Of a stretch of 64,000 nucleotides of DNA, positions 28,185 to 62,330 are shown piece by piece. Source of the DNA: a virus; the UHGV virus genome UHGV-1332848; one strand, given 5' to 3'. Position numbers and translations under genes: made by a program. The notes under the pieces were generated by a model. The model did not search any database, had not been told where the DNA came from, and worked only from the letters and a program-made list of their open reading frames with translations. Every line of letters begins with the position of its first letter. Positions within the stretch are counted from its first letter, which is position 1.

Positions 28185-28817
28185 TTAATTAATTTTTATA
28201 ATTGAATTACTAGCATCAATTACATTATAATCATCAATTCTAAGAGCATCATATACAACTATGCCAAATCCTCTAATATCCATATAAATAGGCACTTCCT
28301 TATTATAATTCAGTATTTCTTTTACTTTATTAGTCATAACGTCAGCATTGTTAACTTTAATTAATATTTTTTCTCCCTTGAAGTAAATACAAACACTATC
28401 TCTATCGACCTCTACATACGCTTTCTCACATTTAGTTATACGTTCCTCATTTTTTATTTCAAATTTTCTATGATTCTTAATTTCAGATCCTTTTTGTTCC
28501 CACACAGCAACATATTCTTTATCTTCAGATGAATATTTACTCCACTGTTGACTCCATTCTTCTCTTTGAACTAAACCTGCAATCTCCTTTAAAGCTAATA
28601 CTAAATTCTTATAAGTTCCTATATTATCATCATCTAAAGCTTTCTTCATCTTTGATAATAATAACTGTTGTTCATTTTTTAATGCTGATAATAAATCTAA
28701 TTGAAATTTGTGTGTATGTATTGGTAATTCGTCATTTGATTCATCAGGAACTTCCCAAGATAGATTTCCATTATATACTTTACTCATATTATATTCTCCT
28801 CCGATGTCAGCCATCAC
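28185..28817 (-). CDS. hypothetical protein
   Basis: 210-aa ORF. Confidence 0.3.
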   Translation of the reverse strand: MMADIGGEYNMSKVYNGNLSWEVPDESNDELPIHTHKFQLDLLSALKNEQQLLLSKMKKALDDDNIGTYKNLVLALKEIAGLVQREEWSQQWSKYSSEDKEYVAVWEQKGSEIKNHRKFEIKNEERITKCEKAYVEVDRDSVCIYFKGEKILIKVNNADVMTNKVKEILNYNKEVPIYMDIRGFGIVVYDALRIDDYNVIDASNSIIKIN

Positions 28818-28924
28818 CTTTAAATTTAAGGACTAAAAACCTTAACAACAATCACCGTTTGAGATGATTGCTATAAGGATTTTATTTAATTTTATACTTA
28901 TTTACGAGTACATCACTTAAGGAA

Positions 28925-30133
28925 CTACAATTTAATTTTATATGTACATTCCCTACCTTCTTCATTGTAAATCATCAAAGTTTGTGAAGGTTTATTACTC
29001 TTTCTAATATGTTTTGCGTATTTATCTACTCCACTTGCTGTTCCGTTTACAACAACAGACATATCATGTTCCTCTTTCTCGTAATGGCTGTGATAATGTC
29101 CCATATGCACTTCCGTTGGGAAAATCTTTAACATATTAGACAAATCATTAATAACTGTTCCGACTTTATCTTCATGTCCATGCACGGCAAATATAGTCTC
29201 ATTTAAAAACTTATAAACGATTATGTTATCATCATACAGATTCTCGCAAAATTCTATATTACCAACACCATCTAATCTTGATTTTAAATACCACGGTATC
29301 ATTCTTTCAAAATTTTCAGTATCAATTGAATCTTTTGCATTAGCCACACATCTTCCATGATTTCCAGTTGCAGAATATATCTTAATTTTATGTATATTTT
29401 CGGCTAGATTTTTAATCATATTGGCTAATATTTCAGCACATATCATGGTCTGTGATATTACATCTTCCTCATTTGATACTCTAGTTCCTAAATGAATTAT
29501 TCCATTAATCATATCTCCCAAAACCTCTAAATGTAACGTAGAGACTTCGTTTTGTTTGCAATATTTAATAATCTTATTCTGTAATTTCTCTATTCTTTCT
29601 CTTAATATTTCTACACTTATCTCATTCCAGTAGTTCTTCTCTTTTATTCCAGTATGCCAATCGCTTACAATTGATACCGCTTCATTATTGCTGTGTTTTT
29701 CAGGTACTCTAAACACTCTCAATGGTCTTATTTCATTTAATTTTTCAATTTCTTCTTTCATCGTTGAAACTAAATGCTCAAATCTTGCATCAGCTCTTAA
29801 GTAGTTTCTATATTCTCTTTTCTGATCTTGGAATCTTATTTTTTCTTTTTCTAATTCAATTTTTTTAGCCTCAATTTCTTTTAATATAGAATCTTCTTCT
29901 ATGTTTTCAATCTTTTCATTATCCAAAATCTCTAATATATTTCTTGCCCCGTAAAACATTCTTCTAGCAACATCACTAGAATATTCTTTACCGAATGCTA
30001 ATAGAGACAACTCGGTATAATCTTCGTCTATTGTTTTATCAACCAACTTTCCATATACTATTCTTCTTATATATTCAAGTCTACTTTCATCATCTCGCTT
30101 CTTTAAAATATCCTCTCTCATAACCCACCTCAT
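28925..30133 (-). CDS. calcineurin-like metallophosphoesterase
   Basis: Motifs GDMINGIIHLG, GNHGRC, VHGHEDK and GHYHSHYE match the MPP metal-binding signature. N-terminal coiled coil. Confidence 0.7.
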   Translation of the reverse strand: MRWVMREDILKKRDDESRLEYIRRIVYGKLVDKTIDEDYTELSLLAFGKEYSSDVARRMFYGARNILEILDNEKIENIEEDSILKEIEAKKIELEKEKIRFQDQKREYRNYLRADARFEHLVSTMKEEIEKLNEIRPLRVFRVPEKHSNNEAVSIVSDWHTGIKEKNYWNEISVEILRERIEKLQNKIIKYCKQNEVSTLHLEVLGDMINGIIHLGTRVSNEEDVISQTMICAEILANMIKNLAENIHKIKIYSATGNHGRCVANAKDSIDTENFERMIPWYLKSRLDGVGNIEFCENLYDDNIIVYKFLNETIFAVHGHEDKVGTVINDLSNMLKIFPTEVHMGHYHSHYEKEEHDMSVVVNGTASGVDKYAKHIRKSNKPSQTLMIYNEEGRECTYKIKL

Positions 30134-30306
30134 TATTTAATCTCTATTAATTGTTCAGCTTCGCACTTTATATTTGGACACATAATTACAAGACCACATT
30201 TTGTCTCCTCAACATAACCTTCTTCCTTTAGTTCTTGTAAGTTATATCTTTTTCCACAATATTTACATGTAAAATCTAAAGCTTTTTTAACTCTCTTTTC
30301 TCCCAT
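30133..30306 (-). CDS. small zinc-ribbon protein (57 aa)
   Basis: MGEKRVKKALDFTCKYCGKRY...KCGLVIMCPNIKCE with four Cys pairs. Its stop overlaps the start of the phosphoesterase gene. Confidence 0.4.
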   Translation of the reverse strand: MGEKRVKKALDFTCKYCGKRYNLQELKEEGYVEETKCGLVIMCPNIKCEAEQLIEIK

Positions 30307-30376
30307 ATGTCATTCTCTCCATTTATTTAATTAATTTTTTATAATAAAAAGAGTGGCAAAACACCACTCATATGTA

Positions 30377-31222
30377 TTAACTAGCTAAATTTACACCATC
30401 TTTATAATGCTTAATCACATCAGAAATATCAATATTCTCTTCATTGCACATAGAAATAATAGTAGCTATTGCATTTGGAATTTCACTATCATCCAACATA
30501 TCAAGTGTTTTTGGTTTAGTTCGCTTTCCAGTTTTATTTAAATAATTCGTAATTCTACTGTTTATATTTATTGAATGGCTATATAATAAATTCTTTTTAT
30601 ATTCAGTCCAAGCACTACCAAAATCACCTTTAGCATATCTTCTAACTAATGCATTTATTAGGTTTCTATTAGCCCAACTAAACACTTCTCCACTCAATAA
30701 TCTTTTTTCAATCGATATAGTTTCATTTTCTAAAAGCAACTTTTCTTTTTCTTCTTCGGCTTCAACAAGCATCAATAGAGCCTCTTTAAAATTGGTCGGA
30801 AGTTTATATTGCTGTTGTTGGATTATTTCTCTCATCCTGAAATATTCTTCTATTATAGAATCCATAACTTCCCACTTCTTATCGTTTGAATTATCCATCA
30901 TTGCAACCAGCTTAGTATATCCTCTTTCAGATAGTAAAAATATATTTTTTGTTCTATTGTTAGTAATTAATCCATTTTCTTTAGCAAAATCTCTTAAACC
31001 TTCTGAAGGTTTTAGAAAATCCTTCAAATCATTATTATTAAATCTGTTGATATTATTGTTTATTAATGTATTTATTTTATCTAGCCTTAAATCATGTTGT
31101 AGTGCAATATCACTAGCTAAAATACATTTTTGATTTTCACCAAAACCACCTTCGACAACTTTTACACTTTTGCCATTAATTTCTTTTGTACCATTAATTT
31201 TGATTAACTCCATATATCTCAT
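30377..31222 (-). CDS. phage regulatory protein, Rha/antirepressor-like
   Basis: N-terminal KINGTKEINGKSVKVVEGGFG..ILASDIALQHDLRLDKINTLI resembles the Rha/ORF6 N-terminal module. Its own promoter region carries the recurrent motif. Confidence 0.4.
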   Translation of the reverse strand: MRYMELIKINGTKEINGKSVKVVEGGFGENQKCILASDIALQHDLRLDKINTLINNNINRFNNNDLKDFLKPSEGLRDFAKENGLITNNRTKNIFLLSERGYTKLVAMMDNSNDKKWEVMDSIIEEYFRMREIIQQQQYKLPTNFKEALLMLVEAEEEKEKLLLENETISIEKRLLSGEVFSWANRNLINALVRRYAKGDFGSAWTEYKKNLLYSHSININSRITNYLNKTGKRTKPKTLDMLDDSEIPNAIATIISMCNEENIDISDVIKHYKDGVNLAS

Positions 31223-32218
31223 TACCCTTTTGACCGTTCATATATTAACTCTTACAACTTAATAAGAAAAGGGCATGCCGTGGTCAATGTAAATTGCCTC
31301 ATCACAACTTACCCGTACAACCAAGTAACATCACTCGGATATTTTAATTAATTATTATTGTTGTCTGTAGCCATTTAATGCACTATAGAGTTGATTTTGA
31401 TAAAGGAGCTATTCTAACTCCTATCTACAGAATGTAGCTATCTATATTCAATTGTTCATACAAAGATACAATCAAATATATCCTTGGATTAACAATTGAT
31501 AAAATAGGTGATTTAATTAATTATTATACTATATGTGCTACTTACGATTGTTCTACAATCCTAAATCGCAGTACGTCTACCACTTGCACATATAGTAACC
31601 ACTATCCCACTCGTGAATAATATCTTTGTCTTTTTAAATGGAGCTATACTCCGTTGTTTTACGCTGTCCCCTTGGACGAAATATATCAATAGTCAAACCT
31701 CATACAAGTGTCTGCTAGCTATTTATTAAAACGATTTTGGTAGGCTTCGCAACCTCTATTAAAACAATTTTGATAGGCTTTGCAACCTCTATTAAACTGA
31801 TTTTATATTCACAAGTCGCTTCAAATCAATCCAGAAGCAATCCGAAATAAAACCCTTCACACTATCAGTAGAGCCCAATAATATTAACGTTAGCACAGCT
31901 AGAATACCTCCAACTTCCATTTATTATTATCTACCCTCACTCGACAACTACGGCGTACCGCCTATTTCCTCTATGTTGTATCAACTACGCCCTCATAAGC
32001 TGAAGAAGTAATTAAACTTGAATTCGCATCAGTAATCCCAATGAGAATTATTTCTCACATTCGGTAAAGAGCGACTTTACCTATCTATTTTTCTTTCCAG
32101 TGGTAATAGAAACCAATTAAATCACTGGCGTAAAGCCTATAATATAAATCAATAGTCAAACCTAATATAAGTGTCTGATATATATTTATTAAAACAATTA
32201 TTTTATGTATTTAATTAA
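31223..32218. other. about 1-kb ORF-free, GC-elevated island with two ~50-bp direct repeats and a 33-bp tandem repeat
   Basis: No ORF of 60 aa or more in any frame. Repeats at 31680-31740 and 32145-32205. Tandem ATTAAAACNATTTTGNTAGGCTTYGCAACCTCT x2 at 31724-31790. Confidence 0.5.
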
Positions 32219-32413
32219 TTATTCTTCACTGGGGAAGTCTTCTACTTTTCCCATTTGTAAAGTAACGCCTTCTATTTCTAAAAATTCATTCAGTTTTTCA
32301 GTTAAATTATATACCTTTTCATTGTCCTTAGTTGTTTCTACTATAATAAAATCTCCATCTTCATTTTTGCTTATACAAGCATTTGCGAATTTTAATGTAG
32401 TTGATTTCTTCAT
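32219..32413 (-). CDS. hypothetical small protein
   Basis: 64-aa ORF immediately downstream of the HU-like gene. Confidence 0.3.
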   Translation of the reverse strand: MKKSTTLKFANACISKNEDGDFIIVETTKDNEKVYNLTEKLNEFLEIEGVTLQMGKVEDFPSEE

Positions 32414-32424
32414 AATTCACACTC

Positions 32425-32700: not shown

Positions 32701-32964
32701 AATTCTTATCTCTCCTTCATTCTCTCTTTATTTTTTAATTAATTATTATATAAAACAGGTTTCTCACGCCTGTATTTAACTTTTTATTCTCATTATCATT
32801 CCCTAATGGACAAGGCTGAATACTCAGCCAAGCCACCAGAGAGATTGTATGAGAGGTGGATATTATTTTCTGATATTCAGAAAATCGGTAGAATTTCCTT
32901 CTCTACCTTATGTAGGAAACTCAACTTTCTCGTTAAGTGGCTATTTTACTAGGTTTCAAATAGA

Positions 32965-35697
32965 TTATAAAATCATTTTTGTGGACTTTTTGTACGTTTT
33001 TTCATATATTTTTAATTTATTATTTAAATTTTCATTATCCTCAGTTAATACTTCAACGTCACCTTTTAACTGTTTGAATAAATTTAAGAATTGATTTTTG
33101 TGTGCTAAGAATAATATATTTAACAAAATAAGTCCTATTCTTTTTAAATTCCCATACTTATCATTATACTCACTCCCCAGCCTATATATAAGTGTTGTAA
33201 AAGTTTCATCTGATATTTTTAACTTAGATATAAAATCAACAATCTTCTCTTTTTTTATTACTGAATACCTGATTTTATCTTCATAACACATGTTACTAGC
33301 CCATACACCATTTATCTCATTATTTAATTTACCAACCTTATTTATTATATTTTGCATCTGTTTCCTATCAGATTTATGATTGTTTCCATCTACTAGTAAA
33401 TCAGTTAAACTAATAGTACTATCTATACTCTCTATTTTAGGCACTTCTTTGTCTATTATTTGTTCTAGGTAATCCATAGGTGTATCTTTTTTAATAAACT
33501 TATAGTTTTTCCCCTCACCTACAAATTTAAAAAAGTAAGGTCTGCACATAGCTTTTCTTTTTCTCTTATCTCTGATGATTTCACCATATGATATATATTC
33601 TCCATCTCTAATTGTTTTAAGCTCTATATCAGAATCAACAACAGATTCTTTTTTTGCTTTATCTATTTCTATACAGCTCATTACATCTAACTGACTTATA
33701 ATTTCATATAATCCTTCTAATGATTTTCCTTTTTTAAACCTATCCCAATATTCACTATTCAATATCTGAGATAAGTTTATGATTTCACCAATAAGATTCT
33801 TACTTGTTTTAATATCTAAATCTATTTTATCTTCAACACTATTAGTCCTATTAACTGTTTTTTTAGGTGTAAAATCTGTAGGCACTAAAAATTTACCATA
33901 TATCTTTTTCGCACTATTAACCAAAATTTCATTATCTGTAATTAATATCTGATCAGAGTCAAAATCAGCCCCTGAGAGTCTTTCTAATAAATTATTACCT
34001 ATGCTGTTTACATGAATTATAAAATTGCTAGTGTTAAAGTATTTATCTAATAATTCATTATATTTGTTTTTACAACACCATACATTACCCATCGTGACAT
34101 GAGGAGACCTTATTCCTATTAAATATATGTTATATCCGAAAGATTTAACACTTACCTCATCTATCCCCAAAGTACTATCACCATAAAACATACCGCAAGA
34201 AGCCTTTAGCATCTCATAACCATTTCCAAATAAAACACTATAATTCCCATTTATTAAAACGTGTCCTTTTCTTATATTGTTCTTGTATGACTGTATTAAA
34301 TTATCTTTGTACTTTCTAAATATCTTTGTATTTGCAAAGTTATCATTAATCATTAGTAATCTATAGACCAGTTCATCGCTATTAGTAAAATCGAACCTTT
34401 CGTCTTCTAAGTCCCATTTCTCAATTTTTTCCAAGCTTATTCCTATATGATTTCTAAGCACTGCCAAATCATCTTTTAATAACTTTATGTAATCTAAGCT
34501 AGGTCTTAACAATTCCCTCATGTCGTCATAGCTTAATGGTAATGTATTTAGTAATTGATAATGTGTTTGAACCATCTCGTGCATATTGGTTGGTGGTTTC
34601 TCATATTTTACCACACCAAACCTTTCATCTGAATTAGTTATCCAATACTCTAAACATTTGTCTCTATCATCACCAAAAGTTTTATAATTTTTGAATTTTA
34701 GATACTTTATGCTACTTGGAGTTGTTATTAGTTTTATATCCTCAACCTTTTTAGCTAAAGTAAAGCCTTTTAACTGATTAATATTATATACTTTGTTATC
34801 TTTAAAAAACTGTTGAATATTAGTATTGAAACAAGCTGATTTAAAAAATCTATTTCTTAACAACAAAAATCCTTTATCTTTATATTTCTCTTCAAAAACA
34901 CTTGCATCTAACAAAGATTGACCATCCCAAATACTATTAGATATTATTGTTTTCTTTTTTGAAGTAATTAATTTTTGTTCTTCCTCACACCATTCTGTAG
35001 CCATTACTATATCCTCAAATTGACTTTTAAAATCTTCAATTACTAATATAGATTTTGGATCTATATGTATGGTGTCTATTATTGATGATGTTGTAAGACT
35101 TATATATGCCTCCATGGAAGCTAAATCCATTTTGTCGTTCTTCCCATACTTTAACCCCATATAAGACCATTCCATCATGTTTTTGTATAAATCTTTTCTT
35201 ATAAATAGGCATTTCCCAACCCTACTTGAGCCACTGCTTCTTTTAAATCTAACATAATGCTTGCCATCTAATTTAAATCCATTTTTATAAAGTTCCTCCC
35301 TAATTTCTTTTGTAGTCATGTCTTTATGTTGATACAATCCAAACGCTATATCACTATCTTCAATCCTTTTACCATTTTCTCTTTTATATGTATAACTAAC
35401 CCTATCGAAATTCTTATTGTTCATATCTTTTTCATCGTTTATGTCTAAATCAATCTTTTTATTTCTATTACCATAGTTAAAAGTAACATTAACAACTGCC
35501 TTAGTATACTGTTTACCCTCTTTTTTATAAAATAATTTATTGTTAATTTCACTTATCTTTATAGCTTCTAGACTATAATCTAAGCTACCTTTAAAAAGAT
35601 TATTTTTATTTTTTGTCTCATAACCTTTTTTATTTTTTTGGGAATTTATAATATCTTTCCCTTCTAAGCTTATTATATAAGTATTAACCTTCTCCAT
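32965..35697 (-). CDS. putative YonO-like single-subunit DNA-dependent RNA polymerase
   Basis: 910 aa. Motif LSGADFDSDQIL (about 33950-33990) matches the universal beta-prime catalytic NADFDGDQ. An HU-like gene lies immediately downstream, as with yonN-yonO in SPbeta. Confidence 0.45.
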   Translation of the reverse strand: MEKVNTYIISLEGKDIINSQKNKKGYETKNKNNLFKGSLDYSLEAIKISEINNKLFYKKEGKQYTKAVVNVTFNYGNRNKKIDLDINDEKDMNNKNFDRVSYTYKRENGKRIEDSDIAFGLYQHKDMTTKEIREELYKNGFKLDGKHYVRFKRSSGSSRVGKCLFIRKDLYKNMMEWSYMGLKYGKNDKMDLASMEAYISLTTSSIIDTIHIDPKSILVIEDFKSQFEDIVMATEWCEEEQKLITSKKKTIISNSIWDGQSLLDASVFEEKYKDKGFLLLRNRFFKSACFNTNIQQFFKDNKVYNINQLKGFTLAKKVEDIKLITTPSSIKYLKFKNYKTFGDDRDKCLEYWITNSDERFGVVKYEKPPTNMHEMVQTHYQLLNTLPLSYDDMRELLRPSLDYIKLLKDDLAVLRNHIGISLEKIEKWDLEDERFDFTNSDELVYRLLMINDNFANTKIFRKYKDNLIQSYKNNIRKGHVLINGNYSVLFGNGYEMLKASCGMFYGDSTLGIDEVSVKSFGYNIYLIGIRSPHVTMGNVWCCKNKYNELLDKYFNTSNFIIHVNSIGNNLLERLSGADFDSDQILITDNEILVNSAKKIYGKFLVPTDFTPKKTVNRTNSVEDKIDLDIKTSKNLIGEIINLSQILNSEYWDRFKKGKSLEGLYEIISQLDVMSCIEIDKAKKESVVDSDIELKTIRDGEYISYGEIIRDKRKRKAMCRPYFFKFVGEGKNYKFIKKDTPMDYLEQIIDKEVPKIESIDSTISLTDLLVDGNNHKSDRKQMQNIINKVGKLNNEINGVWASNMCYEDKIRYSVIKKEKIVDFISKLKISDETFTTLIYRLGSEYNDKYGNLKRIGLILLNILFLAHKNQFLNLFKQLKGDVEVLTEDNENLNNKLKIYEKTYKKSTKMIL

Positions 35698-35735
35698 TAA
35701 TTCACCCCGTCATTTTTAATTAATTATTATATCTA

Positions 35736-35966: not shown

Positions 35967-36057
35967 ATCTCTCTCCTTTTTAATTAATTATTAAAATTCA
36001 AATTTTATCAACTTATTCCGTTATTTATATGTATTTTTTCTGAATTGCGAAATATGG

Positions 36058-36243: not shown

Positions 36244-36496
36244 TTATATTCTCTCCTTCTAATTCGTAATAATTTCAAATAACTATTATAAGACTTTTAA
36301 GCCATTTAAAGCCCCTTATTTTTGATTTCAATTCTTACCCTATAACTTATACCTCTAACCTCCCAACTCTATTCCTAGAGTCAAATTTTGCACTCAAAGT
36401 CTATAATAATAACCTTACATATACTCACCCCCTCAAATATAGCTCTTAACCTTTTTAATTAATTATTTTATGTGTGGAATTTTTATCCACAATCTT

Positions 36497-36544
36497 ATTG
36501 TACATCTTATTCCAAATAATTGCAATAGTTTTTAATTAATTATT
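36497..36544 (-). promoter_or_regulatory. sigma-A-like promoter TTGCAA-17-TACAAT preceded by the AATAATTAATTAAAA motif
   Basis: Read on the minus strand: motif, then TTGCAA (36525-36520), 17-nt spacer, TACAAT (36502-36497). A second motif copy lies at 36454-36470. Confidence 0.45.
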
Positions 36545-37306
36545 TTATAAAGATTTACTAATCAGTTTCCAACCTTGATTTTCCCAATAAAATAAGGATT
36601 GCTTTAATCCATATTTCAATTCATCTTCATTAATAGCATATACATTTGGTGCTTCCATTATAATTTTATCTCTTTTTATTTTACCTATATTGCCATAGTG
36701 TATTAAACCTAACTCCTTTAAGAACTTCAAATATGTATTAAGTGTCTGTTTAGATATACTTAAATCCTTAGATATATTATCTTGTTTCTCCCAAAACACT
36801 TCAGCCATACCACCAGTTATACTAATATTACTTATTCCATCATTTCTTTTTATGATTCTAGCCAATATGTAAAAATATATATTAATTAAAGTCATTTTGT
36901 TTAGTTTAGTTTCACTATCAATTATTTTTAAATAATTATTCATATCTAAAGAAAACCAATTAATTTTATGTCCTTTTTCGTTAAGATCATATGGTAGTAT
37001 TACTCTTCCTTTTAACAATTTTGTCAGATTAATCTTGTCAATGTTAGTATTCAAATTTAATAACTCGTAATCAATCAACTTTCTTATGATATTTTTAAAC
37101 TTTTCATTTGTCCTATTTGCTCCAGTCCTTAAACTACACCCTGATGTTATTATTAAATCTTCTAATGAGAAATAACACTTTTCTAATTTATTTGTTGTAC
37201 ACATTAAATAGCTAATAACATATGGTAATTTGTAGTCAAACTCCTTTAATAAATTTTTATCTAGTATTATCTTCTTTGGTATCATTATAAATCCATCCAT
37301 CAACAC
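36545..37306 (-). CDS. hypothetical protein with winged-helix-like C-terminal region (possible replication/regulatory protein)
   Basis: 253 aa. SKQTLNTYLKFLKELGLIHY is wHTH-like. Confidence 0.25.
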   Translation of the reverse strand: MLMDGFIMIPKKIILDKNLLKEFDYKLPYVISYLMCTTNKLEKCYFSLEDLIITSGCSLRTGANRTNEKFKNIIRKLIDYELLNLNTNIDKINLTKLLKGRVILPYDLNEKGHKINWFSLDMNNYLKIIDSETKLNKMTLINIYFYILARIIKRNDGISNISITGGMAEVFWEKQDNISKDLSISKQTLNTYLKFLKELGLIHYGNIGKIKRDKIIMEAPNVYAINEDELKYGLKQSLFYWENQGWKLISKSL

Positions 37307-37404: not shown

Positions 37405-37974
37405 GACTACTAATAATAAAGACTATAACTAAAATAATAAAAACTAAATATTCTACTTGCACCATTAACGATGGCACAAGTAAGTTTTCGCTTTAGCTCC
37501 TTCTCACCCCTTCTTATTTTATTTTAATTAATTATTTTACTATTGTCAATATTTTCTTTTTCTGGTACGGTATATAAAAATAGCAGGAATATTTATCTAC
37601 TCCTGCTAATATAAATATATCAATCCACTATTTTTATTGCATAGCTTTATTTTTCATTTAAAGCCATTCTAAGACGTTTTAATTTTAGACTATAACTTAT
37701 TCGACTTTGTATTTAAAATCATTCCTAAAGCCTTGTAGTGAGTTTTAAGGCTATGTGTGTTTATAAATTATATTATTTTTGTTTTTACTATGCTATGCAA
37801 CTTATTATTCTATGTCCAAATATCTATTTTATACATAAGGCTTTTAATCACATTTAAAGGCTCTATTTTAGTTTTTATTTCTTGATGATAAATTGTGCCT
37901 ATTGAGTGCTAGAAACGATTCTAGGTGACATTTTATGAGTTTTATCCCTATTAAAACCATATTAATATTTTATA

Positions 37975-38238: not shown

Positions 38239-39438
38239 CTAAATAATAACCTCAAATTCAGATACGTCGTATTTACCATATGGTAAACCTGCAAAAGTAT
38301 AAGTTTTTATATTTTCAACAGCCCCTATACTATCTTTGTAGTCCACATATCTTAATAATGCTGAAATATATGACATTGTATCTAATCTGCAATATTTAGT
38401 TATGTCCTCATAATCTATACCAATCTCTCTTAATCTAGCCACAATTTCCTCGTCTGTTGTATATTTGTTAAGTCCTTTGAGTTTAAGTCTAACTGTGGTA
38501 TTGAATACTAAATTTATGCCATCGTTAGAATCTATATTATATGCTTCAAAGAATTTAACTGTCTTTAATTCTTCTAAAGCTTCTTTCAACCTTCTTATCC
38601 AATAGTAAGAATCTTGTTTAGTTTGTATTTGTATTCCCAAATAATCATATAATGTTTGTAATTTTATATATTTTTCATTACCATGTGACCACTGCGTTAA
38701 TATTAATAGCATTTTTTTAGCTATATTATTTTTCAATAACTTATATTTTTTATAATCATATAGCTTAAAGTAATTGCTAACTAAATTACTAAAAAAGAAC
38801 TCATCTATTTGGACACTTTGAAAATCCCTAATATCTTCATGATGTAGAAGTTCTCTACCTTCTAGTTTTCTAGTTTCAACTGAATAACTTTTGTACTTCG
38901 ATATTATCCTACTACTCTCTTCTCCGTTGAAACTACTTACATAAGCACCTTCTTTTTGATTTCTGATTGCCTGTTTGCTATATATAGTTGTTTCAACCAA
39001 ACATTTTATTGACTTTTCAAGTCTTTCTTTTGTTGCCTTTCCAAAACCCTTCAAACCCATCTCTTTTGCAAGTTCTCTATAGGTAAAATTAATAACATTA
39101 CTCATATTTTCAACTTTATTATCACTCGATACCACAATTTTATTATCCATATTTTTTGACTGTATTTTAAATAGAGCCATTAGTACATCCATTTCATATA
39201 TAGTTGGGCATCCTAAGTCAGCAGATCCTTTTACTGTTAGTTCAACTTCTACGCCATTTCTAATCCAACGCCTAACCAGCATCTTTTCTTTTTTTCTTTT
39301 AAGAGATATAAAAGGCAATGTCATTAAGTTGGATTCATTAAACGACTGATGAGGTTTTATAGTTATAACTTTTCCACAATCTGAATCATTGATATTATTA
39401 GCTTCAGCTATGTTTTCCACATTATCCACACCTTTCAA
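38239..39438 (-). CDS. plasmid-type replication initiator (Rep), TTG start
   Basis: 399-aa protein flanked on both sides by iterons. Classic iteron-Rep architecture. TTG start at 39438. Confidence 0.5.
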   Translation of the reverse strand: MKGVDNVENIAEANNINDSDCGKVITIKPHQSFNESNLMTLPFISLKRKKEKMLVRRWIRNGVEVELTVKGSADLGCPTIYEMDVLMALFKIQSKNMDNKIVVSSDNKVENMSNVINFTYRELAKEMGLKGFGKATKERLEKSIKCLVETTIYSKQAIRNQKEGAYVSSFNGEESSRIISKYKSYSVETRKLEGRELLHHEDIRDFQSVQIDEFFFSNLVSNYFKLYDYKKYKLLKNNIAKKMLLILTQWSHGNEKYIKLQTLYDYLGIQIQTKQDSYYWIRRLKEALEELKTVKFFEAYNIDSNDGINLVFNTTVRLKLKGLNKYTTDEEIVARLREIGIDYEDITKYCRLDTMSYISALLRYVDYKDSIGAVENIKTYTFAGLPYGKYDVSEFEVII

Positions 39439-40951: not shown

Positions 40952-41284
40952 GTGGAATATGGTTCTATGTTTAATAAGAATGACTACGTTATACTTGAAA
41001 TGTTAATTGCAGAAGAATGCAATTCGCCATACAAATCATTAACAAAACAATTCATAATAAAACAGTCTGGATTTTCACATGTTAAAGTACAACAAGTTTT
41101 AAAATCTTTTTTGCTTGTTGGATTTGTAAAAGAAGGTACAAAAGATGGTAATAACAAAACATATTATTATACCGACAAGGGGAAAGAACACTATATGCAG
41201 GTTTTTGAGTATTCAAATGAAGATATAGAGATTTTAGTAGAAAATAATAAAGAGAATGAAAATAATAATCAGGAGGAAAGTTAA
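40952..41284 (+). CDS. tubR: TubR-like winged-helix DNA-binding partition protein
   Basis: 110-aa wHTH protein immediately upstream of, and co-oriented with, the tubulin-like GTPase. GTG start with RBS GAGGTG. Confidence 0.5.
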   Translation: MEYGSMFNKNDYVILEMLIAEECNSPYKSLTKQFIIKQSGFSHVKVQQVLKSFLLVGFVKEGTKDGNNKTYYYTDKGKEHYMQVFEYSNEDIEILVENNKENENNNQEES

Positions 41285-42388
41285 ATGTTAAAAGATTCTT
41301 GTGTATTTATAGGTGTAGGACAATGTGGAGGAAATATAGTTAGACAATTAGAATTAAAAGGTGGGTATTCATGCTTTTATATTAACTCATCAACTGAAGA
41401 TTTAGAAACTATAGGTACTGATTATGATAAGCAACATCATATTTCAGAAACAAAAGGAATGGCTAAAGATCAAAAATTAGCTAAAGAAATAATAAACGCT
41501 GAAGAGAGAAATTATATAATTGCAGAAAAGATATATAAGAGATATGCCAATGCTACGATATATACATTTGTATTCTCAACATCTGGGGGAACAGGTGGTG
41601 GAATGTCAAGTTCTATAATGAAAGCTATGAAAGAATGGTATCCAGATAAAATAGTAAATGCCATTGCTGTTAAACCACATTCAAGCGAAGATATGATTAT
41701 GCAATATAATTCATTGGAATGTCTAAAGGAATTAAAAGAGTTAAATAAAGATAACGTAGTAACTAATTTACAAATTGTAGACAATAATAAAAGAGATTTT
41801 AAGGATAAAATGAGAATAAATTCAGAAGTTGCATCTTTATTAGACGGAATAATGGCTTTTAATTCAATAACATCAGAAGGAAATTTAGATGAACAAGAAT
41901 TAGAAGTAATATATTCAACAAAGGGCGTTTCTTTTATATGTGAGTTTGGTGGTACTGATTTTGTAAATGAATTAGATAAAGCAGAGCAAAAAATGGTATA
42001 TGCACAATATTTAAAAAATGGTACTGTGCATGGTCTTATTTTAAATAAAGATTGTAATACAGAAATAAATAGAGCTATAATAAAGGATGCATTTGGATAT
42101 CCTTTAAAAACAATGGATACTGTATGGGATGATGAAAGTAATATTGTTTTTGTAGCTGGAACTGAATTTAATGATGGAATCTTAGAAGAATTAAAAAAAT
42201 CATATATGGAGATTAAAAAGAAAAGAGAAGAAGTTAACGATAAAGCTAAAGAAAAGAGTGAATCTGATATAAGTATAGATTTTAGTGAATTAGAAACAGC
42301 TTCTACAGTGATAAATACAAAAGTTCAAAGACCAGATAGAAGACGTAGAGTAGGCGTAAATGGTGAAATGAGCAGATATAGAAAATAA
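41285..42388 (+). CDS. tubZ: TubZ tubulin/FtsZ-like GTPase (plasmid/phage partition)
   Basis: T1 loop GVGQCGGNI (compare tubulin GQCGNQ) and G-box STSGGTGGGMSS (tubulin signature GGGTGSG). T7-like VDNNKRD. Basic C-terminal tail. RBS AGGAGG. Confidence 0.8.
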   Translation: MLKDSCVFIGVGQCGGNIVRQLELKGGYSCFYINSSTEDLETIGTDYDKQHHISETKGMAKDQKLAKEIINAEERNYIIAEKIYKRYANATIYTFVFSTSGGTGGGMSSSIMKAMKEWYPDKIVNAIAVKPHSSEDMIMQYNSLECLKELKELNKDNVVTNLQIVDNNKRDFKDKMRINSEVASLLDGIMAFNSITSEGNLDEQELEVIYSTKGVSFICEFGGTDFVNELDKAEQKMVYAQYLKNGTVHGLILNKDCNTEINRAIIKDAFGYPLKTMDTVWDDESNIVFVAGTEFNDGILEELKKSYMEIKKKREEVNDKAKEKSESDISIDFSELETASTVINTKVQRPDRRRRVGVNGEMSRYRK

Positions 42389-46952: not shown

Positions 46953-47766
46953 TTAAATTATAGTTAGATAAGTATGATATAACCGAGATTGAGCTGATAT
47001 TATTTGGCGATTTAAGATATCATTTTAAAGTAGTAATATTAAAAAAGTAGGAGCATCTCGTTAAGACGTAGTAATTTAGATAGTTTAATCAACTATAATT
47101 GATACCAAGTTTAGATTTTTTAATCGGAAATTATATGTAGACGTTGAGAATAGAGGGCTGAACGATAACGAATACGATAATGTTTCGAGTCGTATTTTTA
47201 AAATATTACATGACTCAATGTGTTATGGCAAACACACGTTCCCTTAATCTCCCCGAAAATGTTTAATATCCCCCTACCTATATAGTACTATTTACTATAT
47301 AATACAATATAAATAACACGTATTAAAGTACGATAATTACATAATTATAATACTTTAAGGCATGAAAACAATGTAAATGATAATAATTGTTGATAGGATA
47401 GCTCCTGGAATTATACAGTTATTGATACTGGATAATATAGTTATTGATACATGAGTTGATGCAGATTGGATGAAGAGTAGTCAAATATATTTTAGTAGTC
47501 AAATGTCGTTATTAAGTTTGGTTTGGACGGGAAACACTTATACAGTTTAATTAAATACAATTATCTAGAACTAAACAATAAATAATTCAATTACCTTCAA
47601 TATTAAATATTGCTATTAATAATTATTTAAAAACTATATACAATATCTACCACATATGATATAATTAATATATATAAATATAAAAGGAGTTGATACAATG
47701 AATAAATTAAATTAGGTTTAAACAAACGATACAATAATTAATTAAATAATACAAAGGAGTGATTAC

Positions 47767-48972: not shown

Positions 48973-49331
48973 ACTTCCTAAATCAAATCTGAAAGCTAGT
49001 GATACCAACGGTTTCGAGAGTCTGCCCTTAATATAAAAGAAGAAATAATTAATTAAAAAGATGGATACAAAATAACCATTTATATTATTATATAATAGCG
49101 TTTAATAGCCAACTTTTATTACTTTGCTTATGCGAGCGTTCGCAACGCTTAAATAATATTTATTTCCTAACGTCAATAAAATTATTTAAATTATAATTAG
49201 ATTTAAATAGTCTATAGAATGTATAAAATATACAATAATGATTGTAATAATTAATTAAATACTTTACAAGTGTTGAAAATAAGAGTATAATAAATAGTAT
49301 AATAATTAATTAAAAAGGTGGTAATTTTAAA

Positions 49332-49520: not shown

Positions 49521-49975
49521 AACAACTGACAATTTCCACATTGAAGAAGGGGAGATAGGGATTGAATTCACCGACGGGTCATGGGCAAGTATAAACCAAG
49601 CTAAGAATCAATATACTTTCCAACCTTATGCGTTGGGCGATTGGAGTTATGATTTTAACAATATAGAAGGCTTTAAGAACTGTATTACAACTTATTTAAA
49701 CATAATAAACGAGGGAACTTATTAAGAGGTAGAATTATTTCTATCTCTTTTTTATTTATTCAAGAATATATAATAATTATTTAAAAAATAGTTAGCAAAC
49801 ACTAGTAAATTAAAGAAAATAAGAGATAAACAAAGTCAATGTTTAATAATTAATTAAAATAGTTGAAAATAACACTTGTAATTATAATACTTTAAGCGTA
49901 TAATATAATTATAGTAAGAAAACGAACACAGTAACAAATATAGCAAGTCAAATAAATTAATTAAATATTTTCCTT

Positions 49976-50025
49976 AATAATTAATTAAAAAAGTATTGAC
50001 AAATTATAGAAAAGTATGGTATAAT
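49976..50025 (+). promoter_or_regulatory. consensus sigma-A promoter preceded by AATAATTAATTAAAA motif
   Basis: Motif 49976-49990, TTGACA 49996-50001, 18-nt spacer, TGgTATAAT with -10 at 50020-50025. A second motif copy lies at 49951-49966. Confidence 0.6.
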
Positions 50026-52445: not shown

Positions 52446-52493
52446 AATAATTAATTAAAAACTTATTGACTTTTAAATTGTATATGGTATAAT
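52446..52493 (+). promoter_or_regulatory. consensus sigma-A promoter preceded by AATAATTAATTAAAA motif
   Basis: Motif 52446-52460, TTGACT 52466-52471, 16-nt spacer, TGgTATAAT with -10 at 52488-52493. Confidence 0.6.
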
Positions 52494-52866: not shown

Positions 52867-53174
52867 AAAGAGGATATACGAATATCCTCCTAATAATAAC
52901 ACTCATGTTACGGGTAATCTTATTATTTAAAATATAATTTAAATACATTAAGTGTTATTAAATCAAGATTATCAAAGCAAACTATAAAAGTCAAGAGAAA
53001 TTATAAATAAATATGGAGAAAAATAAAAGGATTAAGTAGTTAAATACTTTCCAACTAGTTTATACTTTCTAGTCAATAAAAAAGTAGTTACATACATATA
53101 AAAAATAAATGAAATAATTAATTAAAAGAAAAGTTAATGAAATATTAGTTTTAAATAAATTGGAGGTTGTAAAA

Positions 53175-55514: not shown

Positions 55515-55552
55515 AAATCAATCTTTTAATAATACATAAGAAAAAATTTTAA

Positions 55553-56438: not shown

Positions 56439-56451
56439 TAGGAATAATTGT

Positions 56452-56565: not shown

Positions 56566-56630
56566 ATATAATGTATAAGTGAAAAATAAAATTGAAAATT
56601 TTGATATGACATATAAAAGGAGTTATTATT

Positions 56631-56852: not shown

Positions 56853-57162
56853 TTTATATAAAATGGATATTTTAAGTATTAATAAGGGGGATAATAACCC
56901 CTGAACGCACATAAGATAATTAATTAAAAAACAAATGATAAAATATATGATAAGAAAAAAATATTAAAAAGCGAGGAATGATTGTATGTTTTATCTAAGT
57001 GTATCAATTGGATTTATATTAAAAATGACTTGTATATGGTTGCCCTATGTAATAGGTGTAGTTTTATTACTTGTATTCATAACTAGCCTTAAAAAGGATT
57101 CTAACTGGCTTAAAAGAGTAATACATAATTGGTATTTAACTATGCTAGGAGAAAAAATTTTA

Positions 57163-57362: not shown

Positions 57363-57434
57363 GGTTTTCTAAGGGGTGTTTTCCTAAATAAAGCCCTATC
57401 CAGTAAAAATAATTTAAATTAAAAGGAGATAGTA

Positions 57435-57764: not shown

Positions 57765-57856
57765 AAAAGTTTGAAATATAGGAAAATTTTAGTTGAAATA
57801 ATTAATTAAAAATAATATAATATAATTAAGATAAAAATTAATTGAAAGGAGTAATA

Positions 57857-58807: not shown

Positions 58808-58827
58808 CATATAAACTCCTACCCCAA

Positions 58828-59046
58828 TTAATCATTATGCTTGTCACAGTCGCAATATAATAAGTCTAAAGGACATACACCAAGAGCTTTAGCAATTATC
58901 TCTAGGGTTTGCATTGTTGGGTTAGCTATGCTATGTTTGGCTTCTAACTCCGAAATATAAGATTGTGAAAGTCCCGTTTTAAAGGCTAATTCTTCTTGTG
59001 TAACACCCTTTATGCGTCTTATGTTTTTTATGTCGAAATATATCAT
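58828..59046 (-). CDS. XRE/Cro-CI-type HTH transcriptional regulator (repressor candidate)
   Basis: IRRIKGVTQEELAFKTGLSQSYISELE is a canonical XRE HTH. It is divergent from downstream plus-strand genes across a promoter-rich gap. Confidence 0.8.
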   Translation of the reverse strand: MIYFDIKNIRRIKGVTQEELAFKTGLSQSYISELEAKHSIANPTMQTLEIIAKALGVCPLDLLYCDCDKHND

Positions 59047-59173
59047 TAGTTTTAATCACCATATTAATTATAATTAATAATTATATAAAAACAAATGCAT
59101 AAATTTTTCCAAATTGGTTGATTATTAGGGAAAATATCGTTGGTAGTGATAAGTATCTTTTTAATTTCATGTT

Positions 59174-59247
59174 ATAATTAATTAAAAGTATTAAAATACG
59201 TTTTAAATAAAATATGTGTTGACTATTTATGGGAAAGGGTATAAAAT
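59174..59247 (+). promoter_or_regulatory. sigma-A-like promoter with upstream AATAATTAATTAAAA-type motif, in divergent region shared with the XRE gene
   Basis: Motif 59174-59187, TTGACT 59219-59224, 17 nt, TAAAAT 59242-59247. Confidence 0.45.
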
Positions 59248-59319
59248 CATATTACAGTAATCGAACAGATGTTCGATAAGCATAATTCATTTTATTATAA
59301 ATAGCAGGGGGAGAATTTG

Positions 59320-59589
59320 ATGGAGAAAGTGAATATGTCTATGAATGATGAGAAATTATTAATGAATACTTTGGTAAATAAAATGTTTAAAGAGAACAAA
59401 AAAAAGTTTAGAGAATTTATGATTTATAATATTGATACAAATGTAGTTGTAAACGATGGTATAGCTACATATATAGTACAATTAAGAGGAAATTTGATAA
59501 ATGAAGTGGAAAAAGTGTATTATGTAGATGATGATTTAGCAAGTATTTTATTACATAATGGAAGACATATGGAAATAAGAATATTATAA
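59320..59589 (+). CDS. hypothetical protein (first gene opposite XRE repressor)
   Basis: RBS GGGGGAGA then ATG 59320. Confidence 0.35.
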   Translation: MEKVNMSMNDEKLLMNTLVNKMFKENKKKFREFMIYNIDTNVVVNDGIATYIVQLRGNLINEVEKVYYVDDDLASILLHNGRHMEIRIL

Positions 59590-59694
59590 ATAAATTGACG
59601 GTTTTTATTATTTAATTAATTATTTACTTTGCAAATACATACTAAATGTAGTATAATAATAATAAATTAATAAATTGAAAAGGAGTAATAACAA

Positions 59695-61077
59695 ATGTCA
59701 GAGATATCAACTTTACTTCCTATGAAAAAGCTAGATGAAGAATTAATTAAAATAATAAATAAAGAAGTTAATAACAAGGAATTAATAAAAAACATTAATG
59801 CTATTTTCGCTAAAAAGAATCTTACTTTAAAAACAGTTGCTTGTTTATTTAATGGTAGTAAATCAATTAGAGAGATAGACACTATGGAGAAAATAGCATT
59901 TACTTACGGATGTTATGAAACACTTAAAGTTAAAAGAAAAAATAATAAAAGTTTAAAGGATGAGTATATTTATAGAGAAGAATTAGATCCAGGTAATTAT
60001 TTTAGTGACCAAATATTAGTTAGATATGAAATATTCATGAGTGAATCTGATGTTGTGAATATTGTTGAATTCAAGAATTTTATTATGATTGATGACAATA
60101 ATAGTAGAGGTAATGTAAGCCTTTTAGATGTTTACAAGTATAGAAAAAATACATTGTGGTTATATAATAGGTCAACTCAAAGAGCACCAGAAATTGTTCC
60201 TATGGGTAATAGCGGGGAATATACGTATAGAAATAGCGTAGATGAAAAAGCGGTTAAAGAAATGACAGAAGCTATTTTAGATGGTAAATTTGAAGAAACA
60301 GAAGTGATTTTAAACGTTAGGCTTATTCCAGATAAAGAGCCTGATGTAAAGGTAGTTACTAAAGGGAAATCTGAAGGAATTGCAGACATTATTGTAACTC
60401 CTAATTATGATATAAATAGTGAGAATTACACTGTGGTTGAAATATTAGACGGATATCACAGAATATTAGCAATAGAGGAAGCTGTAAGGATTTACCATGA
60501 AAGAACTGGCGAATGGTTAAAGGGTTGCATTGGTGTTAAATTGGTTTTTGCAGATGAGAAAAGAGCTTTAAGAATTGTTAGACAAACATTTAAAAGAACT
60601 GCTACAGATGAGCAATATCTAAAATCTATAGAAGAAGATGATATTTCAATGTTTGTAGATAAGATTATAAATAAGAGTAGTATATTGAAATTAAACGTAG
60701 GTAATGTGTATGAAGAGTGTTTGGCTTTTGGGAAAATAACTTATAAGTCTTTATTAAATGATACAATTAGAAAATTAGGAATAGATGTAACAAAAAGATC
60801 TAGTGCAAATTTCACTTCTGATTTTTTAGCAAAAGGGATAGATGAAATTTACGAAATAATTAATGATATATATAAAGATGACAAGGATATTTTGTGCAAT
60901 CCAAATATAATTGCGGGTTATGTAAAAGCTATTTATGAAATGATAAATAAAGAATTGGATGCTGAAGATATTATAGTAAAAGCTCTAAAATTAAGCAAAA
61001 AAGACATTAGAGATATGAAATTAAATAGTAGAGATTGTATCTTAGATAAGATATTAGAATATTTTGAGGTTATTTAA
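59695..61077 (+). CDS. ParB/sulfiredoxin-superfamily protein with DGYHR motif (DGQHR/DndB-like)
   Basis: VVEILDGYHRILAIEEA matches the D-G-x-H-R ParB-like nuclease/DGQHR signature. Promoter TTTGCA-18-TATAAT and a motif copy lie upstream at about 59603-59660. Confidence 0.45.
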   Translation: MSEISTLLPMKKLDEELIKIINKEVNNKELIKNINAIFAKKNLTLKTVACLFNGSKSIREIDTMEKIAFTYGCYETLKVKRKNNKSLKDEYIYREELDPGNYFSDQILVRYEIFMSESDVVNIVEFKNFIMIDDNNSRGNVSLLDVYKYRKNTLWLYNRSTQRAPEIVPMGNSGEYTYRNSVDEKAVKEMTEAILDGKFEETEVILNVRLIPDKEPDVKVVTKGKSEGIADIIVTPNYDINSENYTVVEILDGYHRILAIEEAVRIYHERTGEWLKGCIGVKLVFADEKRALRIVRQTFKRTATDEQYLKSIEEDDISMFVDKIINKSSILKLNVGNVYEECLAFGKITYKSLLNDTIRKLGIDVTKRSSANFTSDFLAKGIDEIYEIINDIYKDDKDILCNPNIIAGYVKAIYEMINKELDAEDIIVKALKLSKKDIRDMKLNSRDCILDKILEYFEVI

Positions 61078-61089
61078 AAGGAGAAAAGT

Positions 61090-62241
61090 ATGTTTAGAGA
61101 ATTTTATTTTGGGAGAGCTTATGATTTTAAAACAGAAGAGGAAATGAATGAAATGTACTCTAAGTTAATGAGTGAGGCTAATCCTTATGAAATTAACAAA
61201 AATACATTTCTCAACGAATATTACAAGGATGATAGTATTGATACAAAGATAGTATTATATGCATTGTGGAAAGGTGCAATTCAATACATTGAAGAAATGA
61301 AAATGAAAGATTTATATCAGTTTTCACCTTCTGAGATATCTGATTTAATAATATCCACACCAACAACAAGTAGAGTTAGAAAAGAGTCTATATTTAACTT
61401 TATAAAGCAGTATTGTGATTGGGCATTCTCTAAGGAATTAATAAATGTAAATCCTACTGATGGATTAAACAGGGAGGAACTCGTTCAAGTAAATAAAAGA
61501 GCTATTAAAAGAAAAGTAATGGGATTGAGTGAGTTTTATAATTTATGTTATTCAATGTTAGAAAATACGAGTGTTTTTAATGTTTTGCCATTGGTTTTAG
61601 CTAGATATGGAATAACTGGTTCAGAATTAAGTTATATGTCAAATTTAAAATGGAACGACATAGATAGAGAAAACATGATTGTTAATATAGTAAAGCATGA
61701 AACAGGAGAGGTTATTACACAATTAAAAGTAGATAAAAATTTTATTAATTGGATAGATATTGCTAAAGATACTAATGATTATAAAGTTAAGACTAACAAA
61801 GAGAAAAGTGGCATTACTTCTTTTGAAACAGTTAGTAATGGTGGTTATATAGATAGAGGATATGTAAATAAAATTTCTATAAAAACTAGAGAAAGTGAAG
61901 ATGTTTTGAAGGTTGAAAAGTCTTCATTGTATAGTAGAATTAATTTGGCATTTAGAGACAACGAAATGAATGTAATTTCTCTTGGGAGTCTTGAAAAGAG
62001 TAGAAAGATAGAAGTTTTATTAGAAAAAAGAGAAAGTAGAAAGTTAACTACAAGAGACGTTCAAGAAGTAGTGCTAATGTTTAACCCTAATGCAAGTTTG
62101 GGAGCTTATAATTCTCTCAAGAATGATTATCAAAGTATAACTGGAGATACGGTTCTACCTGCTAGAGCTAAAACATATGAGTTAAAAGATGAAAATAGCG
62201 TAGAGTTTGTTAAAAATGTCAAAAAAGAATTGGGTTTATAG
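61090..62241 (+). CDS. hypothetical protein resembling a tyrosine-recombinase fold but lacking the R..HxxR..Y catalytic residues
   Basis: Core-binding-like ESIFNFIKQYCDWA..INVNPTDGL and LVLARYGITGSELSYMSNLKWNDIDREN resemble integrase boxes. No HxxRH or terminal Tyr motif is recognisable. Confidence 0.3.
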   Translation: MFREFYFGRAYDFKTEEEMNEMYSKLMSEANPYEINKNTFLNEYYKDDSIDTKIVLYALWKGAIQYIEEMKMKDLYQFSPSEISDLIISTPTTSRVRKESIFNFIKQYCDWAFSKELINVNPTDGLNREELVQVNKRAIKRKVMGLSEFYNLCYSMLENTSVFNVLPLVLARYGITGSELSYMSNLKWNDIDRENMIVNIVKHETGEVITQLKVDKNFINWIDIAKDTNDYKVKTNKEKSGITSFETVSNGGYIDRGYVNKISIKTRESEDVLKVEKSSLYSRINLAFRDNEMNVISLGSLEKSRKIEVLLEKRESRKLTTRDVQEVVLMFNPNASLGAYNSLKNDYQSITGDTVLPARAKTYELKDENSVEFVKNVKKELGL

Positions 62242-62281
62242 AGAGCATTATCTCTATAAACTCTTTCTTTAAAATAATTTT

Positions 62282-62330
62282 AATAATTAATTAAAAAGAT
62301 GTTGACAATAAAAGCCAGTAATGTTAATAT
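62282..62330 (+). promoter_or_regulatory. consensus sigma-A promoter preceded by AATAATTAATTAAAA motif
   Basis: Motif 62282-62296, TTGACA 62302-62307, 17-nt spacer, TGtTAATAT with -10 at 62325-62330. Confidence 0.6.

Follow-up and report, generated by a model that had tools for sequence, protein, structure and literature searches.

We analyzed a stretch of 64,000 nucleotides (here called the window) of the virus genome UHGV-1332848. With a GC content of 28%, the window belongs to an SPbeta-like phage-plasmid and contains 16 exact copies of the 15-bp word AATAATTAATTAAAA. The element appears to be a Clostridium plasmid-prophage that is partitioned by TubZ. The word is very probably a cis-acting site for a DNA-binding protein encoded by the phage itself. 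Our preferred, although by no means secure, candidate for this protein is the MrpR-like product of the gene at 61090-62241, which we predict to act as a repressor and which would make the array the counterpart of the SPBRE elements of phage SPbeta.

The late structural genes are on the minus strand, followed by a plasmid-maintenance module and a plus-strand early region. The end of the early region holds, in order, a yopP-like recombinase gene, an XRE gene (minus strand), orf90, a yopQ-like gene, the MrpR(YopR)-like gene, and a PemK/MazF-like toxin gene. The window also encodes a YonN/HU-like protein and a weak YonK-like open reading frame (ORF). The genes most relevant to the word are the following.

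32965-35697, minus strand: YonO-like single-chain RNA polymerase, 910 amino acids (aa) (BLASTP with SPbeta YonO, E = 2e-9; phrog_8308)
58828-59046, minus strand: XRE/HTH_3 protein in a YopS-like position, an alternative candidate binder (domain match)
59695-61077, plus strand: YopQ-like protein (DGQHR/DndB-like; BLASTP with SPbeta YopQ, E = 5e-11, both 460 aa; phrog_5732)
61090-62241, plus strand: MrpR(YopR)-like protein with a tyrosine-recombinase fold, the proposed binder of the word (Pfam, phrog, PDB, and BLAST)

The protein encoded at 61090-62241 matched Pfam family PF22822 (MrpR_N_CB) with 38.3 bits (cutoff, 27) and phrog_5830 over its full length (E = 3e-26), and its top PDB match was MrpR (8a0a; E = 0.005). 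The alignment with SPbeta YopR was confined to N-terminal and central regions. The domain scan of this protein did not detect PF22823; homologues with 97 to 99% identity carry both PF22822 and PF22823. The yopQ-like gene is directly upstream of the mrpR-like gene, as in the yopQ-yopR pair of SPbeta, within the gene order yopP-yopQ-yopR. In the YonO-like protein, a DFDSD metal-site motif aligned with DNDGD of YonO, and the neighbors of this gene in related contigs encode YonK, YonJ, and YonG. The 72-aa XRE protein was the only helix-turn-helix (HTH) repressor-like protein recognized in the window, with no search aimed at gp71-like proteins.

Counts, orientation, and placement of the word

With up to two mismatches, the word occurred 57 times in the window, compared to 10.8 +/- 3.2 times (maximum, 24) in dinucleotide shuffles of the same sequence. 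The 10-mer core TAATTAATTA, which an earlier reading of the sequence alone had described as rare by chance, was indeed expected 2.1 times and present 24 times. For intergenic counts, long ORFs were treated as genes (83% coding); the strand of the 10.6 kb of DNA between them was chosen to follow the direction of transcription nearby, and expectations came from Markov models of orders 1 and 3 based on this DNA. Exact sense copies numbered 15 (0.01 to 0.02 expected). When one mismatch was allowed, we observed 26 sense copies (0.2 to 0.55 expected) versus a single antisense copy (0.1 to 0.16 expected), and this sense bias of about 26:1 is far beyond the effect of the A>T skew of the sense strand. 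Information content was limited to the 15 positions and dropped to background outside them. The repeated, oriented word of the sequence-only reading is therefore genuine, given the strong enrichment and orientation bias under AT-matched models, and its copies had been located correctly to within a few bases.

Minus-strand copies are located below 37.6 kb and plus-strand copies above 40 kb, in agreement with the direction of the genes and the switch in GC skew; the antisense copy at 59610 is treated separately below. As can be read from the sequence, AATAATTAATTAAAA has a TAA in all three frames, which bars sense copies from gene interiors. The previously noted confinement to intergenic DNA thus holds as a pattern but is partly trivial as an argument, whereas the orientation bias inside intergenic DNA is not forced in this way. 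[quoted passage not shown]

15644-15658, minus strand: one mismatch; between a stop codon and an intrinsic terminator
16470-16484, minus strand: one mismatch; adjoins an SD inside the late operon
21227-21241, minus strand: exact; occupies the 29 nt that separate two late structural genes (stop-motif-SD-ATG), a position of the stoperator type
31342-31356, minus strand: exact; ORF6N-domain gene 119 nt downstream
31511-31525, minus strand: one mismatch; in an ORF-free stretch
32209-32223, minus strand: one mismatch; at the end of the yonK-like ORF
32733-32747, minus strand: exact; before the yonN/HU-like gene
35714-35728, minus strand: exact; overlaps the -10 box of TTGTAA-18-TATAAT, with the yonO-like start 16 nt on
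35978-35992, minus strand: exact; adjoins the SD of a 76-aa gene just upstream of yonO (the SPbeta yonP position)
36453-36467, minus strand: exact; 77 nt downstream of the copy at 36530
36530-36544, minus strand: exact; immediately past the stop of gene 36545-37306
37522-37536, minus strand: exact; over the spacer and -10 box of TTGACA(37549)-17-TAAAAT, before the winged-HTH/initiator-like gene 36545-37306
47618-47632, plus strand: one mismatch; 4 nt before TATACA-17-TGaTATAAT, pairs with 47733
47733-47747, plus strand: one mismatch; 7 nt before the SD of gene 47767
49044-49058, plus strand: exact; intergenic
49246-49260, plus strand: one mismatch; 2 nt before TTTACA-17-TATAAT, pairs with 49301
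49301-49315, plus strand: exact; about 10 nt past the -10 box of TTTACA-17-TATAAT, adjoins the SD of gene 49332
49845-49859, plus strand: exact; weaker -35 candidates 3 to 16 nt downstream
49976-49990, plus strand: exact; 5 nt before TTGACA-18-TGgTATAAT (12/12 promoter)
52446-52460, plus strand: exact; 5 nt before TTGACT-16-TGgTATAAT
53113-53127, plus strand: exact; start codon 53160 is 32 nt downstream
56915-56929, plus strand: one mismatch; intergenic, 3' of a hairpin
57797-57811, plus strand: exact; in the spacer of TTGAAA(57793)-17-TATAAT, before the yopP-like recombinase gene
59173-59187, plus strand: one mismatch; LexA-box promoter of orf90 31 nt downstream
59610-59624, minus strand (antisense): one mismatch; 4 nt upstream of TTGCAA(59629)-17-TATAAT, the promoter of the yopQ/mrpR-like operon
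62282-62296, plus strand: exact; 5 nt before TTGACA-17-TAATAT, the promoter of the PemK/MazF-like toxin gene, pairs with 62369
62369-62383, plus strand: one mismatch; adjoins the SD of gene 62399

Outside the plasmid module, each of the seven strong sigma-A-like promoters in intergenic DNA on the sense strand carried a copy, compared to none of the four strong promoters inside the module (37.6 to 47.6 kb). Relative to the start of the -35 box, the word started at -20, -20, -20, -19, and -17 in five of the seven (upstream) and at +4 and +13 in the other two (in the spacer). We divided the copies into four classes. The five upstream copies (47618, 49246, 49976, 52446, and 62282, out of about 29 intergenic copies) end 2 to 5 nt before strong -35 boxes and span about -55 to -41, with their A-tract adjoining the box. 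A second class consists of the spacer copies at 57797 and 37522 and the copy at 35714 in the yonO promoter. About 10 copies form a third class 0 to 15 nt before an SD, touching it in several cases (16470, 21227, 35978, 49301, and 62369), and the remaining copies follow stop codons or precede terminators.

The classes combine in a recurrent unit, motif-5 nt-promoter-motif-SD-ATG, seen in the pairs 47618/47733, 49246/49301, and 62282/62369. The same unit is found in the relatives L002 (6550/6635), L009 (8031/8112), L010 (219/306), and L012 (1343/1410). The spacings within pairs (55 to 115 bp) showed no common helical phase. The earlier reading had placed the word 5 nt upstream of a uniform TTGACA-17-TGnTATAAT promoter at 49976, 52446, and 62282; the spacing was correct, but the boxes differ (TTGACA-18-TATAAT, TTGACT-16-TATAAT, and TTGACA-17-TAATAT, respectively, all with TG). 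Its view that the interior of the late operon is free of copies did not hold, as this interior contains the exact copy at 21227-21241, one-mismatch copies at 16470 and 15644, and a two-mismatch copy at 535. The copy near 59607, regarded as an exception to the orientation rule, is a real antisense copy (59610) that sits by the -35 box of the yopQ/mrpR-like operon, and the inverted copy at this promoter is kept in L009 (at 1847).

Positions within the core promoter are repressor positions. The motif-flanked promoters are close to consensus, have an extended -10 box, and need no activator. [quoted passage not shown] The five copies upstream of strong promoters do resemble UP elements in their A/T richness at about -55 to -41 and in the A-tract that borders the -35 box, and the 10 or so copies before SDs are where an enhancer would act. 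UP elements are degenerate, however, and do not occur in spacers or before SDs and terminators; host machines accept degenerate A/T-rich DNA and would not keep 16 exact copies. Neither the spacer and -10 copies nor those before terminators or after stop codons are explained by a host-read word, the strong promoters of the plasmid module do without it, and no conserved word precedes the SDs of the related AT-rich elements L004 and L005. We regard this explanation as improbable.

Lineage-specific variants of the word

The relatives of the window are metagenomic contigs and one metagenome-assembled genome (MAG). They differ in the word: we distinguished seven lineages, each with its own variant 1 to 3 bases apart.

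Window, L001, L009, and L140: AATAATTAATTAAAA, 16 exact copies in the window
L010: AATAAATAATTAAAA, 10 copies
L012: AATAATAAATTAAAA, 12 copies
L002/L003: AAAAATAAATTRAA, 10-mer core present 16 times in L002
L146: AATAAATTAAAAATA, 13 copies with up to one mismatch
L147: AAAAATTAACTAAAT, 7 copies
L013: a shorter AAAAATTAAAG form

Within each genome, one variant serves both the copies upstream of -35 boxes and those abutting SDs, and orthologous sites (before the yonN-like gene, yonO, and the PemK gene) carry the variant of the local lineage; before the yonN/HU-like gene, for example, L002, L146, and L147 each have their own. A motif pair precedes the YorE-family gene in L009, and a single copy is found there in L010. 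In L012, the copies before minus-strand HTH genes are inverted, so that orientation tracks local transcription and not replication. The distant YonO-bearing elements L004 and L005 had no such word before their ribosome binding sites.

That dozens of short, unlinked sites have changed in concert, each lineage in its own way, indicates that a single phage-encoded, sequence-specific reader is at work. Recognition most likely takes place at the DNA level, because copies upstream of -35 boxes fall outside the local transcript. The host alpha-CTD and ribosomes are not good candidates for the reader, since they would not impose a shared lineage-specific base change; known UP elements show no exact variants that follow phage lineages, and one variant of 1 to 3 bases fixed per related phage for both uses would be left unexplained. 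The earlier remark that the word is not simply an UP element fits this, as the variants argue strongly against a word that only the host reads, whether as an UP element or to enhance translation.

The variants also bear on explanations that need no reader. The word could serve as a linker, providing microhomology at cassette boundaries for module exchange, or as a three-frame stop "insulator." In line with a linker, blocks of homology between the window and L001 end 2 to 71 nt from copies, and the three-frame TAA in the version of the window would suit an insulator. Breakpoints are, however, gene boundaries, where the copies sit anyway, and a 15-bp stretch of AT-rich DNA offers little homology. 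Nor would a linker account for the strict sense orientation, the fixed spacing to the -35 box, or the absence from the plasmid module, and it leaves unexplained why every copy in a genome shares the lineage-specific variant. The three-frame stop is lost in the variants labeled D and C (AATAATAAATTAAAA and AAAAATAAATTGAA), and we rejected it as a selected feature. Both explanations thus seem very improbable, including the recombination linker proposed earlier.

The palindrome in the version of the window (a PacI site, TTAATTAA) was likewise rejected as a selected feature, as it is not kept among the variants. Its loss fits a monomeric binder of an asymmetric site.

In a pattern scan of other viral contigs, the 15-mer was a singleton in 119 of the 120 stretches among the matches listed. 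A scan for the doubled pattern in viral contigs returned one true relative (L140) and low-complexity arrays in giant-virus MAGs (GVMAGs). In the latter contigs (L143, L136, and others; 18 to 21% GC), the same letters form low-complexity tandem arrays (AATAATTAATTAAAAAA...). These have no relationship to the phage sites and give rise to false positives when contigs are scanned for the motif. In L004, an element with YonO and TubZ, we observed clusters of AATTTAAAGTTAA in both orientations (at 95-260, 856-930, and 6660-6710) next to HTH_3 and MerR-like genes, which looks like a conventional palindromic-operator or centromere-type arrangement. We also noted a one-mismatch copy, AATAATAAATTAAAA, in frame within the yonO-like gene's C-terminal part (33010-33024). 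It is kept in L001 (12671), and in L002 (12678) as the sequence of L002 itself. This match is probably due to the encoded residues (...NNKLK...) by coincidence and not to a site.

Candidate readers and the SPbeta precedent

The closest precedent that we found is in Bacillus subtilis phage SPbeta. Its 15-bp SPBRE, predicted in 1999, was identified as the binding site of MrpR (YopR) by chromatin affinity precipitation sequencing, electrophoretic mobility shift assays, and reporters (Kohm et al. 2023, PMC10516654). MrpR is the master repressor of SPbeta and has a recombinase fold without recombinase function (PMC10516654). We mapped the SPBRE copies in AF020713, and all were sense oriented. They sit 2 nt upstream of the -35 box (aimR and the first yonX copy), in the spacer or -10 region (yonP, yorE, yorZ, yosX, and yorM), or next to the SD (the second yonX copy, yopM, and yopV). 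The two yonX copies bracket the promoter (motif-promoter-motif-SD), like the pairs in the window. SPBRE and the word of the window are therefore alike as asymmetric, AT-rich, intergenic 15-bp words in many copies with the same three placements and the same pairs. The two phages share a backbone (YonO, YonN, YonK/J/G, and yopP-yopQ-yopR), and several SPBRE targets have motif-bearing counterparts in the window or its close relatives (yonP/yonO, yopM-R and the yopP..R operon, and yorE).

There are also differences. The SPBRE sequence, ACAAAWAATATGTATA, is not that of the window (AATAATTAATTAAAA), whose word family was not found in SPbeta. In the window, placement upstream of the -35 box is commoner than placement in the spacer, and copies occur inside the late operon. 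SPbeta is an integrated prophage, unlike the predicted Clostridium plasmid-prophage studied here. The MrpR-like protein, here the predicted binder, is 27% identical to SPbeta MrpR over 181 aa.

A second parallel is found in Cluster A mycobacteriophages, in which the gp71-type repressor of L5 acts on asymmetric stoperators and operators whose orientation matters for the block of elongation (PMC9283540; PMC6550527). These phages and the window have in common more than 20 asymmetric sites of 13 to 15 bp, at promoters and in short intergenic gaps, with orientation tied to transcription, and both groups carry lineage-specific site variants. The Cluster A sites are GC rich and belong to phages of actinobacterial hosts, unlike the AT-rich word here. 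The repressor differs too: the monomeric gp71 family combines an HTH with a stoperator domain, and the recombinase-fold MrpR-like candidate is unrelated to it. Copies between a stop codon and an SD, including those in the late operon, parallel L5-type stoperators, and an elongation block is proposed here by analogy. The stoperator-like reading was the best of the three offered from the sequence alone, as it pointed to many oriented repressor sites, but it did not name the closer precedent of SPBRE and MrpR. Its candidate binders (the XRE protein, the HU-like protein, and the RNA polymerase) are less probable than the MrpR-like protein, which it missed.

The word could be all or part of a promoter for the YonO-like enzyme, a single-chain polymerase of the two-barrel type. 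Transcripts would start within the A-run or immediately beyond it and have very short leaders that begin at the SD. The variants would then be coevolved polymerase-promoter pairs, and copies next to sigma-A promoters would mark a hand-over from host to phage polymerase. Like the promoters of T7-type single-subunit polymerases, the word is asymmetric, conserved, sense oriented, and immediately 5' of genes, with phage-specific variants that could track YonO specificity, and copies precede the yonN-like gene, the yonK-like ORF, and several late genes. The YonO promoter is itself still undefined (PMC5467207). In SPbeta, YonO is needed only for 37 late genes, which have one start site upstream of yonK (PMC5467207), and such a single start for the late operon is hard to reconcile with the many copies here. 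Most of these are early and, in contrast to T7-type promoters, physically coupled to sigma-A promoters, 2 to 5 nt upstream of them or inside them, including that of yonO itself; just four or so fall in the 28-kb late operon. Furthermore, SPBRE has the same architecture and is bound by MrpR, the yonN-yonK interval of SPbeta contains no SPBRE copy, and L004 and L005 carry YonO without an array. We therefore think it improbable that the word is a recognition element for YonO.

It is less far-fetched, although still unlikely, that the word is the operator of another phage regulator: the XRE/YopS-like protein, a small early protein, or the HU-like protein, acting as a repressor or as an activator of, e.g., middle transcription. 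The lineage variants demand some phage-encoded reader without saying which, the XRE gene is within the same regulatory cluster, and the strongest promoters have the word at a fixed position centered near -48, where activators and UP elements classically sit. XRE-type repressors normally bind as dimers to short palindromes and have few operators, however, and the palindrome of the window is not conserved among the variants. HU-type proteins are not sequence specific, and no DNA-binding domain was detected in the 20 small early ORFs. The spacer, -10, and pre-SD copies are not in activator positions, and the promoters are already near consensus.

Repression by the MrpR-like protein would work as follows. 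In the plasmid-prophage state, repressor monomers would occupy each asymmetric site. Copies that closely precede the -35 box, occupy the spacer, or cover the -10 box and start would silence strong sigma-A early promoters, including those of the yonO and yopP-like genes. Copies between a stop codon and an SD would act as oriented, stoperator-like roadblocks against read-through into lytic and late genes, and the replication and partition module, being free of sites, would stay expressed. This last feature is what a lysogeny repressor of a plasmid-prophage requires. The inverted copy at the promoter of the repressor operon itself would allow autoregulation (59610 is a possible autoregulatory site), and induction would probably proceed via the small LexA-box-controlled gene beside this operon. 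Compatible with this explanation, and new if true, a catalytically dead recombinase-fold repressor would have independently evolved polar elongation blocks of the stoperator type.

Several observations weigh against MrpR as the reader. The SPBRE consensus, AAATAATATGTATA, had no match with up to one mismatch in the window, versus 11 in SPbeta, and copies are several-fold denser in the window, with about 30 in 64 kb versus about 14 in the 134 kb of SPbeta. Across lineages, the identities of the MrpR-like, XRE, YopQ-like, and YopP-like proteins fall together and do not single out MrpR; YonO identities are all about 70%, and covariation cannot favor MrpR over YonO. L011 has MrpR-like and YopQ-like genes but no obvious array in 21 kb. 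The AlphaFold2 model of the MrpR-like protein, built from five sequences, was unusable (predicted local distance difference test score, 46). Finally, the spacing is tight (4 to 5 nt to the -35 box and mostly 0 to 2 nt to the SD), beyond the needs of a simple repressor and only loosely explained by repression, and it would equally suit an UP element, a translation enhancer, or an activator. Without the repressor, the word may also serve as an UP-like or A/U-rich element.

Neighboring features and implications

Some further features of the regulatory cluster deserve mention. A perfect LexA (Cheo) box, CGAACAGATGTTCG, is located at 59262-59275, just past TTGACT(59219)-17-TAAAAT and before a 90-aa ORF (59317-59589). 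GAAC-N4-GTTC is present at the equivalent place in L009, L010, and L013 and, in SPbeta, between yopS and yopT. The box is likely the SOS entry point for induction. Directly 3' of the mrpR-like gene, the PemK/MazF-family toxin gene (62399-63001) encodes 200 aa with a long C-terminal extension. This gene, whose promoter is flanked on either side by a motif copy, is kept in L009, L010, and L012. Lysis-lysogeny control in the SPbeta group interacts with host MazEF.

The motif-free maintenance module consists of MerR-like, Mrr, and FtsK-like genes together with a TubR-like winged-HTH protein and a TubZ tubulin-like GTPase (40952-42388), a type III plasmid partition system. It also contains a 399-aa ORF with no assigned function (38239-39438). 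L001 is 97.7% identical to the window across the module and mosaic elsewhere. A megablast search with 28 to 50 kb against annotated phages and plasmids returned no close relative, just an 84-bp match to an RNA repeat, and tblastn with YonO against annotated collections gave at most 39% identity. Rfam and tRNA scans of the window found nothing relevant, and the word did not match the host-factor boxes of Fur/PerR, CodY, or Spo0A.

In the minus-strand unit, an ORF-free stretch (31222-32205) contains 2.5 tandem copies of a 33-nt repeat (31724-31804). A 3.2-copy array with 93% identity to these copies immediately precedes a ToxN/AbiQ type III toxin gene on Clostridium perfringens plasmid NZ_CP148656, and no ToxN homologue was found within the window. 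The repeats look like a putative orphan antitoxin RNA (pseudo-ToxI type) that may be a decoy against abortive infection, and their likeness hints at C. perfringens as a possible host. A long hairpin (31441-31508) lies between the copies at 31511 and 31342 and gave only a spurious microRNA-precursor match in Rfam.

MrpR and SPBRE were defined only in 2023 and only in the Bacillus phage SPbeta. If our interpretation is correct, the same silencing logic would operate in Clostridium plasmid-prophages, with denser sites and with roadblock-type copies inside operons. The variants would represent at least seven natural repressor-site specificities that are 1 to 3 bases apart, a ready series in which to trace the evolution of immunity specificity for a recombinase-fold repressor, alongside the Cluster A mycobacteriophages. 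They would also provide orthogonal operator/repressor pairs for Clostridium genetics, and the word itself would serve as an easy guide to promoters and regulons when this uncharacterized group of phage-plasmids is annotated.

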